Below are positions 14,911 to 18,932 of a stretch of 43,407 nt of DNA, piece by piece (the first letter of the stretch is position 1; each line of letters opens with the position of its first letter). Both the position numbers and the translations under genes were made by a program. The stretch comes from Gemmatimonadota bacterium (GTDB lineage: Bacteria > Gemmatimonadota > Gemmatimonadetes > Gemmatimonadales > GWC2-71-9). Under the pieces are notes generated by a model. That model had not been told where the DNA came from and did not search any database. It saw only the letters and a list, made by a program, of their open reading frames with translations. Location: contig JBGPEJ010000001.1 in assembly GCA_041482775.1 (NCBI GenBank), forward strand, positions 1 through 43,407. Reading direction: 5' to 3'.

Positions 14911-16266
14911 ATGAGCTCTCGGATATCCCGGGCGGAAGCCGGACTCGCGCTGGCCACAGGGCTGCTCCTTGCGGCGCCCGGCGCGGCGGCGGCGCACGAC
15001 ATTCCGGTCCGGGTGGCGCTGATGGCGTTCATCAAGCCGGAGGGACGGACCCTGCGCGTACTGGTGCGCGCGCCCCTCGAGGCGATGCGGGACATCGCCT
15101 TCCCGCTCAAGGGGCCCGGCTACCTCGATCTGCCGCGCAGCGACCTCCTGCTCACCGACGCCGCGAACCTCTGGATTGCCGGCTCCATGGAGCTCCAAGA
15201 GAACGGCCGCCGGATCGAGGACCCGCGGATCGTCGCGGTGCGGGTGTCGCTGCCGTCCGACCGTTCCTTCGAGTCCTGGGAGCGGGCCCTTTCCCACGTC
15301 ACCGGCGCGCCGCTCCCCGCGGAAACCGAGTTGATCTGGAAACAGGCGCTGCTCGATGTGCTGCTGGAGTACCCGATCGACTCGGCGCGCTCCGAATTCG
15401 CCATCCGGCCCGCCTTGGCGCGCCTGGGCCTCCAGACCACCACCGTCCTCCGGTTCCTGCCGCCCGGCGGCGGCGAGCGCGCCTACCAGTTCCTCGGCGA
15501 TCCCGGTTTGGTTCGGCTCGATCCGCGCTGGCACCACGCCGCGCTGCAGTTCGTCAAGCTGGGCTTCCGGCACATTCTCGACGGGATCGATCACCTGCTG
15601 TTCATCTTCTGCCTGGTGATCCCCTTCCGGAAGCTTCGCCCGCTGATCGGGATCGTTACGTCGTTCACAGTGGCCCACTCGGTTACTCTCATCGCCTCGA
15701 CCCTGGGCCTGGCTCCCACCGCGCTCTGGTTCCCGCCGCTCATCGAGGTCTTGATTGCCCTGTCGATTCTGTACATGGCGTTCGAGAACATCGTGGGAGC
15801 GCGTCAGGACCGGCGCTGGCTGCTGGCCTTCGGCTTCGGGCTGGTGCACGGGTTCGGGTTTTCGTTCGTGCTCCGGGAGTCGCTCCAGTTCGCCGGCGTG
15901 CACCTGGCCACCTCGCTGCTGTCGTTCAATCTCGGCGTCGAGCTGGGGCAGGTCTTCGTGCTGCTGCTGACGGTTCCGCTCCTGGGGTGGCTCTTCACGA
16001 GGGTGGTCCGGGAACGGGTGGGCATCATTCTGCTCTCCGCGCTGGTGGCCCATACGGCATGGCACTGGATGCTCGACCGCGGCGCCATCCTCCGGCAGTA
16101 CCGATTCGAGTGGCCGGCGCTCGATGCGGTGTCGCTGGCGGGCGCGCTGCGCGGGCTCATGCTCCTGCTCATCATTGCGGGGGCGGGATGGCTCATGCTG
16201 GGGCTGGTGCGGCGGCTGGCGCAGCCGGGCGGCCCCCGCGAGCCCGCGGCCCAAGCGGAGAACTAG
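14911..16266 (+). CDS. HupE/UreJ_2-family membrane protein with N-terminal periplasmic domain
   Basis: 451 aa with signal MSSRISRAEAGLALATGLLLAAPGAAAAHD. The C-terminal half (HILDGIDHLLFIFCLVIP...SFTVAHSVTLI...GLVHGFGFSFVL...FNLGVELGQ) matches the HupE/UreJ-type 6-TM module. Confidence 0.8.
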   Translation: MSSRISRAEAGLALATGLLLAAPGAAAAHDIPVRVALMAFIKPEGRTLRVLVRAPLEAMRDIAFPLKGPGYLDLPRSDLLLTDAANLWIAGSMELQENGRRIEDPRIVAVRVSLPSDRSFESWERALSHVTGAPLPAETELIWKQALLDVLLEYPIDSARSEFAIRPALARLGLQTTTVLRFLPPGGGERAYQFLGDPGLVRLDPRWHHAALQFVKLGFRHILDGIDHLLFIFCLVIPFRKLRPLIGIVTSFTVAHSVTLIASTLGLAPTALWFPPLIEVLIALSILYMAFENIVGARQDRRWLLAFGFGLVHGFGFSFVLRESLQFAGVHLATSLLSFNLGVELGQVFVLLLTVPLLGWLFTRVVRERVGIILLSALVAHTAWHWMLDRGAILRQYRFEWPALDAVSLAGALRGLMLLLIIAGAGWLMLGLVRRLAQPGGPREPAAQAEN

Positions 16267-16267
16267 G

Positions 16268-16693
16268 TTGCGCCTCCTGATTTCGGCATGCATACTGGCC
16301 TGGCATGGTACGGCCGCGGCCCAGGCCGGGGCGCGGGATTCGACCCGCTCGACCCGGACCGGCGTATATACCGCAGCCCAGGCGCTGCGCGGACGGGACA
16401 TCTATCTGCTCAACTGTGTGAGCTGCCATACCGCGGCTTCCCATACCGGTCCGGTGTTCGCCGCAAAGTGGGAAGGGCACCAGCTGTCGGATCTGTTCGA
16501 GTACATCCGGGCGTCGATGCCCAAGAGCGCTCCGGGAACCCTCACCCGGCGCGAGTACACCCAGGTGACGGCGTACCTGCTCAGGATGAACGGGATGCCG
16601 GCCGGCGCGGCCGAGCTTCCCGCCGACTCCACGGCGTTGACCAGAATCCGGATCGAGCTCAAGACGGCGCGCGACTCCGTACCAGAGAGGTGA
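16268..16693 (+). CDS. Class I c-type cytochrome, periplasmic
   Basis: TTG at 16268, 1 nt after the upstream stop, gives the signal MRLLISACILAWHGTAAAQA. The haem motif is CVSCH and the distal Met region is YIRASMPKSAPG. The track start at 16124 would overlap the HupE-like gene by 143 nt. Confidence 0.75.
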   Translation: MRLLISACILAWHGTAAAQAGARDSTRSTRTGVYTAAQALRGRDIYLLNCVSCHTAASHTGPVFAAKWEGHQLSDLFEYIRASMPKSAPGTLTRREYTQVTAYLLRMNGMPAGAAELPADSTALTRIRIELKTARDSVPER

Positions 16694-16700
16694 TCCGCCC

Positions 16701-18932
16701 ATGCCCCGCTTCTCCCGGTTTCACCGACAACACCTGATCCACAGATTTCACAGATTACACAGAATTGACAAGGTTGTTCATTTCATCTGTGCCATCTGTG
16801 TAATCTGTGGATTGAGCAGTTCGCCGCTCCTGGCCCAAACGAAGCCAACCGCGCGCGGCAACGTCCCCGGTGAGTGGCGGGCGTGGGGCGGCGACCTCTG
16901 GAGCACCCGGTATTCTCCGCTCGACCAGATCAACGCGAGGAACTTCGACTCGCTGAAGGTGGCCTGGCAGTGGAACGCGGGAGCCTTCGGCAGCGACGAG
17001 TATTACCGGACCACACCGCTCTACGCCAACGGCCGTCTCTTCACCGTGGCCACCACCCGCCGAGTGGCGATGGCGCTCGACCCCGCCACCGGCGAGACCC
17101 TCTGGATGTGGCGCCTGGACGAAGGGATCCGGTGGCAGAAAGCGCCACGCCAGTTTGCCGGGCGCGGGCTGGCCTATTGGACCGACGGCAAGGACGAACG
17201 GGTCATTGTCGTGACGCCGGGATACCACCTGGCCTCGCTGGACGCCAGGACCGGCATCCCCGACCCCAAGTTCGGCACCAACGGCGTGGTGGATCTGATG
17301 CCCGGGCTGGGGCTCCCGATGGTGCCGCTCGCGGTCGACGACTCGGGCCCGCTCATCATCAGCGACGCCGCGCCCGCCCGCCAGGCGCGCCCGGGGGAAA
17401 TCTGGGACCCGATCAAGAAGATCGGCGCCGACGGGACCATTGGAATCGATCCCACACTGGGCGAAATCGCCAACAGCTCCCCCGCCATCGTCGTGAACGA
17501 CGTCATCGTGGTGGGAAATTCCTCGATTCACGGCTACTACCCGATCCGCTTTCGCAACATCCCGGGTTTCATCCGGGGGTTCGACGTCCACACCGGGAAG
17601 CAGCTCTGGAAATTCAGCCTGATCCCCCAGCCGGGAGAGTTCGGCGCGGAGACCTGGCTCAACGGCTCCAAGATCGGGACCGAAGGGGTGGGCAAGAACG
17701 ACGCCTGGGCCACCTACTCCGCCGATCCTGGGCTCGGCCTGGTTTACATCCCGGTGGGCATGCCGCTGCTGGACGAATACGGTGGCCACCGGCCGGGAGA
17801 CAATCTCTTCGGCACCAGCCTGGTGGCGCTCGACGTCAAGACCGGGAAGCGGCGCTGGCACTTCCAGATGGTGCACCACGACATCTGGGACTACGACAAC
17901 CCGATGTCGCCGAACCTCCTCGATGTCACGGTGGATGGGCGGCCGCGGAAGATCATCGCCCAGACCACCAAGCAGGGCTGGGCCTACGTCTTCGACCGGG
18001 TGACCGGTGCACCGATCTGGCCGATCGTGGAAACGCCGGTGCTGCCGAGCGAGGTGCCGGGGGAGCGCACCTCGCCCACCCAGCCGGTTCCCAGCAAACC
18101 GGCGCCGTACGCGCAGCAGGGGCTGCTGGAAACCGACCTGATCGACTACACCCCGGCCATCAGGGATTCGGCGCTCAAGATCGCCAAGCGCTGCCGCATG
18201 GGGCCCTGGTTCATCCCGGCCTCGCTCGCCGACGGCACCGGGGCAAGCGGCTACAAGTGCTCCTGGTACGCGCCCGGCGCCGGCGGCGGCGTCAACATCG
18301 ACGGCGGGGCGGCAGCGGATCCGGAAACCGGGATGATGTACGTCGGAGCTATCAGCGGGCTCAGCACCATCCAGGTGCAGAAGGATCCCTGCTCCGAATT
18401 CCGCTACAGCTCACCCCGCGACAACTGTGGATTGATCGGCGCGCTGCCGCCACCGCCCGGCTACCAGCCGCCGGCCAGCCGAGGGGGAGAATTCGAGGGG
18501 CGCGGCGCGCTCTCCCAACTGGGCGGGGTCTCGATCCTCAAGCCGAAGCCGTTCGGCGGCATCACCGCCTACAACCTGAATTCGGGAGACAAGGCGTGGT
18601 GGGCCCCCAACGGGGGGACGAGCCCGGTAACCAGCACCTCCCCGCTCTTTGCCGGAGTCACCCTGCCACCAGCACCCGGACGGGGGCTGGCACAGGTGAT
18701 CACGACCAAGACGCTGGTGATCTACGGTACCGGCCGGAGCGGCGGGGTGCCCGACGCGGAGCCGAAGCTGTTCGCGCTGGACAAGGCCACCGGGAAGCCG
18801 GTCGGCGCGGTCGAGATTCCCGGCCGGACCACCGCGGTGCCGATGACCTTCATGCACCAGGGCCGCCAGTACATCGTCTTCGCAACCGGCGTGGGAGAGA
18901 ACACCTCGCTGGTGGCGCTCCGGCTTCCCTAA
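16701..18932 (+). CDS. PQQ-dependent dehydrogenase (soluble glucose/alcohol dehydrogenase-type 8-bladed propeller)
   Basis: 743 aa. GAGAGGTGA acts as SD 7-8 nt before the ATG. EWRAWGGDLWSTRYSPLDQIN, repeated W-docking blades and QMVHHDIWDYDNP resemble quinoprotein active-site regions. Confidence 0.9.
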   Translation: MPRFSRFHRQHLIHRFHRLHRIDKVVHFICAICVICGLSSSPLLAQTKPTARGNVPGEWRAWGGDLWSTRYSPLDQINARNFDSLKVAWQWNAGAFGSDEYYRTTPLYANGRLFTVATTRRVAMALDPATGETLWMWRLDEGIRWQKAPRQFAGRGLAYWTDGKDERVIVVTPGYHLASLDARTGIPDPKFGTNGVVDLMPGLGLPMVPLAVDDSGPLIISDAAPARQARPGEIWDPIKKIGADGTIGIDPTLGEIANSSPAIVVNDVIVVGNSSIHGYYPIRFRNIPGFIRGFDVHTGKQLWKFSLIPQPGEFGAETWLNGSKIGTEGVGKNDAWATYSADPGLGLVYIPVGMPLLDEYGGHRPGDNLFGTSLVALDVKTGKRRWHFQMVHHDIWDYDNPMSPNLLDVTVDGRPRKIIAQTTKQGWAYVFDRVTGAPIWPIVETPVLPSEVPGERTSPTQPVPSKPAPYAQQGLLETDLIDYTPAIRDSALKIAKRCRMGPWFIPASLADGTGASGYKCSWYAPGAGGGVNIDGGAAADPETGMMYVGAISGLSTIQVQKDPCSEFRYSSPRDNCGLIGALPPPPGYQPPASRGGEFEGRGALSQLGGVSILKPKPFGGITAYNLNSGDKAWWAPNGGTSPVTSTSPLFAGVTLPPAPGRGLAQVITTKTLVIYGTGRSGGVPDAEPKLFALDKATGKPVGAVEIPGRTTAVPMTFMHQGRQYIVFATGVGENTSLVALRLP
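16737..16812. repeat. Imperfect 28-bp inverted repeat built from three in-frame 9-bp units per arm, inside the PQQ-dehydrogenase signal-peptide coding region
   Basis: The left arm (16737-16764) is ATCCACAGATTTCACAGATTACACAGAA. The right arm (16785-16812) is ATCTGTGCCATCTGTGTAATCTGTGGAT. 24 of the 28 positions are complementary. Confidence 0.8.

Follow-up and report, generated by a model that had tools for sequence, protein, structure and literature searches.

The window analysed here is the whole stretch of 43,407 nucleotides (positions 1 to 43,407, forward strand) of contig JBGPEJ010000001.1 in GenBank assembly GCA_041482775.1, a 3.1-Mb metagenome-assembled genome of a Gemmatimonadota bacterium that is 81% complete (genome G000 below). 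In it, a cytochrome c gene is followed by a gene for a pyrroloquinoline quinone (PQQ)-dependent dehydrogenase, and 36 nt inside the dehydrogenase open reading frame (ORF) begins a 76-bp palindromic element built of inverted arrays of 9-bp repeats. We consider it probable that this element is a gene-less foldback copy of a repeat, dispersed and apparently mobile, and that co-option has turned this copy into the greater part of a Sec signal peptide. The features of the locus are:

16124..16693, plus strand: cytochrome c gene (Pfam PF13442 Cytochrome_CBB3, E 9.5e-10); its true start is possibly downstream of 16124.
16685..16695, plus strand: Shine-Dalgarno (SD) sequence GAGAGGTGATC, with its core GAGG at 16687-16690, 10 nt before ATG 16701.
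16701..18932, plus strand: PQQ-dependent dehydrogenase ORF, 743 aa (Pfam PF01011, E 2.2e-158).
16701..16835, plus strand: predicted Sec-type signal peptide, residues 1-45, with n-region MPRFSRFHRQHLIHRFHRLHRIDK, h-region VVHFICAICVICGL and c-region SSSPLLA; proposed cleavage before Q46.
16722..16739, plus strand: two degenerate extra units, CACCGACAA and CACCTGATC, in register with the left array and reading HRQ and HLI.
16737..16812, no strand assigned: gene-less foldback element of the CACAGAT-array/GxxExxY-cassette family, an inverted repeat with ends ATCCACAGAT...ATCTGTGGAT, the same as in 17 copies in genome G005.
16740..16766, plus strand: left array, three CACAGATnn nonamers read HRF-HRL-HRI; positively charged n-region.
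16767..16784, plus strand: spacer or hairpin loop, read DKVVHF; spacers differ among family copies.
16785..16811, plus strand: right array, three ATCTGTGnn nonamers read ICA-ICV-ICG; hydrophobic core and the best-conserved part across orthologues.

PQQ quinoproteins are a family of periplasmic enzymes, and the upstream cytochrome c is likely to be the electron acceptor of this one. Dehydrogenase orthologues (76-93% identity) were found in 20 same-genus genomes, with the cytochrome c/dehydrogenase gene order the same at all orthologous loci. The TGA stop of the cytochrome c gene (16691-16693) lies inside the SD sequence of the dehydrogenase gene; this GAGGTGA motif, overlapping the stop just before the ATG, is conserved in the orthologues, and the SD and ATG arrangement is repeated at the orthologous loci of the 20 genomes. 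No promoter-like or terminator-like site was detected between 16300 and 17100.

Re-reading of the window returned the arrays as the initial annotation had described them, in position and in sequence: three in-frame nonamers CACAGATTT, CACAGATTA and CACAGAATT on the left and three nonamers ATCTGTGCC, ATCTGTGTA and ATCTGTGGA on the right. In a repeat search, the inverted arms came out as 16737-16763 and 16786-16812, 27 nt each and 22 nt apart, with 24/27 positions (89%) complementary, essentially the same geometry as the 24 of 28 positions and 20-nt spacer given before. The element comprises codons 13-37 and the first base of codon 38. The two extra units preceding it form a direct repeat with the left array (16719-16733 versus 16746-16760, 80% identity), the whole reading FHR-QHL-IHR-FHR-LHR, and are possibly left over from a left arm that was older or longer. 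Exact CACAGAT heptamers number five in the window, and all of them fall within one 70-nt stretch at the element, although their count alone is not significant, five or more being reached in 17/100 shuffles. Sediment-metagenome contigs from independent runs match the region with 0 differences (X1 record 1 over 16682-16886 and X4 record 26 over 16700-16921), and so the element is real sequence and no assembly artefact; a relative at ~88% identity also crosses the block without gaps. The element folds strongly as RNA, at -36.3 kcal/mol for the 82 nt from 16734 to 16815 (z = -6.2, 0/200 shuffles as stable) and at -47.4 kcal/mol (z = -5.25) for 16690-16830. Searched against Rfam, it matched no RNA family: the only hits were miRNA-hairpin look-alikes below threshold, the best scoring 25.7 bits where 100 are required.

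The composition of the block sets it apart from its host. Element GC is 0.41 versus 0.685 for the genome, and GC at third codon positions (GC3) is 0.44 versus 0.88 in the remaining dehydrogenase ORF. Codon statistics from 1408 long ORFs (611,000 codons) of the window's genome bore out the claim that the block uses rare codons: AGA provides 0.9% of Arg, TTA 0.3% of Leu and GTA 4.5% of Val codons, with less extreme shares for TGT (16% of Cys), TTT (14% of Phe) and ATT (15.5% of Ile). AGA occurs three times and TTA once inside the element, and neither codon appears in the remaining dehydrogenase ORF. An insertion event, which the initial annotation had offered as one source of this composition, accounts for it: the atypical codons and the RNA hairpin alike are by-products of the element's insertion origin.

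Translated from ATG 16701, as the element probably is to judge from the reading frame and its SD sequence, the block would form the bulk of a signal peptide. Hydropathy is maximal in the h-region VVHFICAICVICGL, at ICAICVICGL from residue 29 (mean Kyte-Doolittle 3.04 in the best 10-residue window), and the net charge before this maximum is +6, with six His in the n-region. The proposed cleavage site, SSSPLLA/Q, has Ala at -1 and Leu at -3, and cleavage before Q46 would give a mature protein beginning QTKPTARGNVPGEW; element-bearing and element-free orthologues alike conserve the A/Q junction with (x)RGNVPGEW after it. Hydropathy, charge, the conserved A/Q, membership of a periplasmic PQQ family and the adjoining cytochrome c all point to export of the dehydrogenase. 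The route would be neither Tat nor lipoprotein: residues 1-28 of the translation contain no RR pair, and the lipobox [LVI][ASTVI][GAS]C is not matched, C30, C33 and C36 each being without G, A or S at -1. A word-indexed protein search with residues 1-46 returned the query itself as the only match. A phmmer search with the 46-aa peptide against 1.84 billion representatives gave three hits: a metagenomic PQQ-dehydrogenase fragment with an element-coded N-terminus, one more element-bearing orthologue (P0003); a 46-aa ORF called across an intergenic element copy (P0004); and a 987-aa protein with 22% identity over 10 matched stretches (P0002). No further gene families emerged from this search, for which the query is too short.

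The element belongs to a dispersed family. The genome search proposed in the initial annotation found ~9 array clusters on other contigs of the window's own assembly, and the pattern CACAGATnnCACAGAT was present in 20/24 further genomes from the same Gemmatimonadales genus (as many as 56 hits in one genome, none for the reversed control), versus 0/16 genomes from other genera of the order. (A second pattern, CGCGGATnnCGCGGA, was rejected as a family probe, being too noisy in genomes of 68% GC, with 3-15 control hits; only G008 had clear paired copies.) In G005, 17 copies define the canonical form: (G)ATC, three CACAGATnn, a spacer of 10-60 nt, three nnATCTGTG and GAT(C), for a total of 48-110 bp. 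Both ends of the window copy (16737 and 16812) match the canonical ends exactly, and metagenome contigs with other family copies align to this stretch alone, diverging at 16735-16737 and 16813-16816. Most other copies are intergenic, often just before start codons. Examined for the marks of a classical miniature inverted-repeat transposable element (a deletion derivative of an insertion sequence that encodes a transposase), the family has terminal inverted repeats and a gene-carrying parent form, whose gene encodes a small nuclease-fold protein, and no consistent target-site duplication was seen in the flanks. Two G005 copies at different sites (L061:1473-1555 and L067:3607-3689) have an identical 33-nt spacer in opposite orientation, which suggests true copying of a gene-less element.

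We then compared the N-termini of the dehydrogenase orthologues, as had been proposed. In ~13 species the element, or at least its right arm, is still there and follows the conserved SD and ATG as a single open frame, and the region from the ATG to RGNVPGEW is open in one frame in 18/18 orthologues read, although its length varies from 31 to 68 codons. The orthologues sort as:

Both arms, in the frame HR(F/L) ... IC(V/A/G): G000, G021, G005, G007, G016, G004.
Right arm only: G013, G012, G010, G002, G006.
GC-rich arms of the CGCGGA kind: G015, G008, perhaps G020.
Short classical signal peptide: G011, G014, G018, G017, G009, and the outgroup genera G025, G029, G053, G056.

The right-arm peptide is where the hydropathy of the N-terminus peaks in each species with the element (mean Kyte-Doolittle 3.0-3.6 over 10 residues), compared with 1.9-3.3 for the classical signal peptides of element-free orthologues and outgroups. 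The element-free orthologues share the same ATG position. In 40 dispersed copies, by contrast, the HRx/ICx reading is open in only 10/80 orientations (12.5%), and 15% of their frame-readings are open with the right arm in the frame ATC TGY Gnn. Moreover, AA is the commonest last linker in dispersed copies (32/80 arm ends) and is absent from all in-frame copies, where it would place Glu in the hydrophobic core.

The arms are GC-drifted in G015, G016 and G006, and G004 and G015 have a homologous spacer (GFSSGGAVHP and GFSSEGTVHP) flanked by different arms (CACAGAA/CACGGAT versus CGCGGAG); arms therefore drift towards GC after insertion at the dehydrogenase locus. The spacers of G000 and G016 have GAATT and TTGTTCAT in common at the same spacing, a likeness that hints at common descent. 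In three genomes the orthologue match is split in two or frame-changed (L049 in G017, L051/L054 in G015, L052/L053 in G018), which could reflect a pseudogene or a sequencing error; those of G017 and G018 are without the element.

These comparisons bear on whether the RNA structure is itself the selected function, a stem 36-112 nt into the ORF that slows early elongation or couples translation to export, with the peptide incidental. The strength of the window hairpin, the three AGA codons in it and the excess structure in G021, G005 and G004 as well speak for such a role. Excess folding (z <= -3) is, however, confined to those three and G000, where both arms are near consensus; in species where the right arm stands alone or the arms have drifted, z runs from -0.5 to +1.8, yet the frame and the hydrophobic core are kept. 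The same hairpin also recurs at dozens of unrelated, mostly intergenic sites, and it has no terminator-like tail. A current function for the hairpin, one of the roles first envisaged for the block, is thus improbable. Because the hairpin has been lost in many orthologues while the hydrophobic core has been kept, selection appears to act mainly on the peptide, above all on that of the right arm, and not on the hairpin; the lack of AA linkers in frame, together with a frame and core that are kept without structure, points the same way and counts against a conserved RNA or operator role.

The gene-carrying relatives of the element bear on a second alternative. In long copies the arms lie 330-450 bp apart with a GxxExxY gene between them (TIGR04256, E 2e-36; PF13366 PDDEXK_3, E 9e-35), which starts within the innermost left nonamer (ATG in CAG ATG A). 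Such forms are found at L056:1508-1956 (where 1519-1950 encodes a type-A GxxExxY protein), L055:1499-1953, L057 and, in the window's genome, C120:337-781. A survey of PD-(D/E)XK proteins gives the function of PDDEXK_3 as 'Unknown' (PMC3424549). We surveyed GxxExxY loci within the genus (L114-L143) and in many phyla (L144-L223), the latter through a search with the type-A alignment. Inverted nonamer arrays flank ~21/23 GxxExxY genes inspected in the genus, and three clades of the protein correspond to three nonamer types, CACAGATnn, (G/C)CGCGGAGn and GACGCGGAn (type B1 at L114, L115 and L116; type B2 at L125, L138, L139 and L140; also G008 C135:467-557), a pairing that suggests co-variation of protein and site. 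In type B1, the right array encodes the ORF C-terminus ASASPRLRV. Beyond the genus, ATCCRCAGAT... arrays occur at 52/68 GxxExxY loci from many phyla, one Thermoplasmatota archaeon included, and short paired copies were found elsewhere in one genome each of Planctomycetaceae (39 hits), Methylophaga (16) and Opitutaceae (17). In the 5-Mb genome of Candidatus Thiosymbion (G069, locus L162), CRCAGATnnCRCAGAT gave 403 hits and 0 control hits, a very large expansion of the repeat family. One GxxExxY cassette directly upstream of an amidase gene recurs within the genus, in five or six species at the least (G000 C120:280-2187; L118, L120, L126, L141, L255); it is syntenic and, apparently, of vertical descent, broken in G000 but intact in some of the others.

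Might the nonamers then be protein-binding sites through which a regulator, or the GxxExxY protein itself, controls the dehydrogenase gene? Phased tandem nonamers resemble binding sites, the co-variation of GxxExxY clades with nonamer type suggests that this protein binds arrays somewhere, and near-consensus TGT and AGA codons are retained in several species. Against this, the only GxxExxY copy found in G000 (C120) is broken by a stop and a frameshift, though that genome is 81% complete; the left array decays freely in orthologues; and the arrays are not specific to the dehydrogenase operon: each genome has them at dozens of other, unrelated places and around GxxExxY genes, which makes them element ends and not an operator. 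The gene-specific binding array that the initial annotation had considered therefore has little likelihood. Least credible is that the element is untranslated, an intergenic or 5'-untranslated-region insertion with the true start at or after 16812 and the upstream ORF extension fortuitous: most family copies are indeed intergenic, many of them just upstream of start codons, and an in-frame TTG is present at 16812, but a start there would give MSSSPLLAQT..., without a hydrophobic segment, for an enzyme of a periplasmic family encoded beside a cytochrome c, while the SD and ATG stand at a conserved position that element-free orthologues with classical signal peptides share, and the frame stays open in all orthologues through changes of length, against the 12.5% expected from dispersed copies. 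The need for the full N-terminus, argued in the initial annotation on the ground that no downstream start supplies a hydrophobic core, is upheld. Sense/antisense hydropathy complementarity as the source of the charged and hydrophobic arms was rejected, because the arms are not codon-complementary, the complement of ATC TGT being ACA GAT and not CAC AGA.

Parallel cases occur in two other genes for secreted enzymes. In a glycosidase-like gene of G000 (C140:1364-1432, minus strand; comparison with L087, L090 and L103) the leader reads MTQIRRYHRVICVIGVICGSAVMVESAQAQ: the left array contains the start ATG, and the core comes from the right array; the ancestral ATG is now ATA. The same gene in the distant G007 reads MPTTTIAHRFHRLLRSFGAIVIQSLGLWIICVICGQAVLSAQA (...HRFHRL...IICVICGQAVLSAQA), from an independent in-frame copy. 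The remaining orthologues read are empty and have short classical signal peptides, including that of the nearest relative, G001 (MRALLCLLILLSASLPAQAQ). A second glycosidase-like copy in G000 (C196:5587-6057), truncated by the contig and with its 5' end unassembled, is 94% identical over residues 75-231 and could be a paralogue or come from a second strain. An S9-peptidase-like gene is filled in G014 only, where it reads MLAPSIIQKICAICVICGSAQLTLPRTELAAQ with the right array alone (leader QKICAICVICGS; L238, C409, minus strand, array at ~1028-1052 of L238), and ten orthologues have classical peptides, MRFVRALGALILLAVPLTAQ or similar (comparison loci L264-L274). The right array is read Ile-Cys-x in every case, and the host A-Q junction is retained. 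On this comparison of filled and empty sites, element arrays have evidently replaced the classical signal peptides of the glycosidase-like gene (G000, G007) and of the S9-peptidase-like gene (G014).

The element belongs to a dispersed family, lies in frame, has its frame and hydrophobic core conserved in orthologues and has counterparts in other genes. The proposal that the signal peptide is encoded by the nonamer palindrome, and that this is a small palindromic element domesticated in frame, is supported and gains a probable history. A repeat copy would have inserted 36 nt inside the dehydrogenase ORF and then been translated, the left array as His-Arg-Phe/Leu to yield a positively charged n-region and the right array as Ile-Cys-Val/Ala/Gly to yield the hydrophobic core, with the signal-peptidase site provided by the host-encoded SSSPLLA/Q. 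For this family, insertions close to gene 5' ends are frequent, and those within a signal-peptide region would survive only in the frame that yields a charged-then-hydrophobic leader again. Tolerance is the likely logic behind this in-frame retention.

Several points weigh against co-option of a mobile repeat, or limit it. Mobility of the family is deduced from copy number and from presence and absence at sites. The orthologue tree is not resolved at its base and the G015 gene is frameshifted; one old insertion cannot be told from several at the dehydrogenase locus, and we claim no number of insertions there. Export and cleavage are predicted from hydropathy, charge and the conserved A/Q, for a signal peptide with an unusually long n-region (24 residues, six of them His) and a Leu at -3 that is acceptable yet not typical. 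Finally, several species have kept TGT, AGA and GTA codons in the face of strong GC3 pressure. For an old insertion this is more retention than simple peptide-level selection would maintain, and some nucleotide-level force may be at work too: possible contributors are gene conversion from other copies, re-insertion and binding by the cassette protein.

A more general proposal, which we advance tentatively and would take seriously without favouring, is that the CACAGAT foldback is a portable proto-signal-peptide. In one of the possible frames its right array would always be read as (Ile-Cys-x)n and its left as (His-Arg-x)n or as a source of the ATG, so that insertions into the 5' ends of genes for exported proteins would compensate for themselves. 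They would have repeatedly replaced classical Sec signal peptides, in four events or more spread over three gene families of a single Gemmatimonadales genus, and a selfish repeat linked to a nuclease would thereby keep giving rise to new signal peptides. CGCAGAT versions in other phyla, reading Arg-Arg-x ... Ile-Cys-x, may act likewise.

If the element-coded peptides do export their proteins, they are natural, repeated examples of the birth and turnover of signal peptides from selfish DNA, and the filled and empty alleles of close relatives (G000 versus G001, glycosidase-like gene) make the case directly testable. Co-option of the repeat likewise accounts for an oddly Cys- and His-rich signal peptide, one otherwise open to mis-annotation, with its start trimmed or the protein called cytoplasmic, and it gives a phenotypic consequence to a GxxExxY-cassette repeat family that is widespread across phyla. 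In the literature we found no description of this element family or of repeat-encoded signal peptides. A 2024 review of prokaryotic miniature inverted-repeat transposable elements lists in-frame fusions, but the word 'signal' is absent from its text, and none of the roles it gives is that of a mobile repeat providing a targeting signal or taking the place of one (PMC10969869). The use as a signal peptide, conserved across the genus and repeated in two other genes, thus appears to be new.

Known systems resemble parts of this one. Closest in behaviour, and in behaviour only, are the Rickettsia palindromic elements (RPEs; PMC10969869), short palindromic dispersed repeats with copies in and between genes that are read in frame, the added peptide being tolerated. 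RPEs differ in being ~150 bp long, of unrelated sequence and limited to Rickettsia (RPE-1 to RPE-10), and in encoding surface segments of metabolic proteins, whereas the present repeat is tied to a GxxExxY gene and its peptide becomes a targeting signal or takes the place of one. The REPIN/RAYT system (Bertels & Rainey 2011, PMC3116915) is alike in its inverted-doublet hairpins, its many gene-less copies, its associated gene flanked by repeats and its clade-specific families, but it has a Y1 HUH transposase in place of a PD-(D/E)XK-type GxxExxY gene and single REP palindromes in place of arms of tandem nonamers, and REPINs are described as extragenic. Three further systems have no more than single features in common with it. 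PARCELs, like the present element, are repeats that code for protein while their DNA has dyad symmetry, and are linked to mobile DNA and membrane-targeted proteins; they are, however, tandem domains of 25 residues in mature proteins of Mollicutes and other microbes, not foldback signal peptides, and show no sequence relation. In Geobacter metallireducens, paired octa- and heptanucleotide repeats (PMC2700814) also form opposite-strand tandem arrays with variable spacing and many copies, but their units are GTTGCTYN and MTYCTGA, they have been read as 'predicted global regulator binding sites', and no link to a nuclease gene and no coding role are described for them. The Ssn/NTS pair of Neisseria (PMC11893778), in which a small nuclease has a cognate multicopy repeat around genes, offers a possible model for the relation between GxxExxY proteins and their arrays, although Ssn is a GIY-YIG site-specific single-stranded DNA nuclease, of another superfamily and with another repeat.

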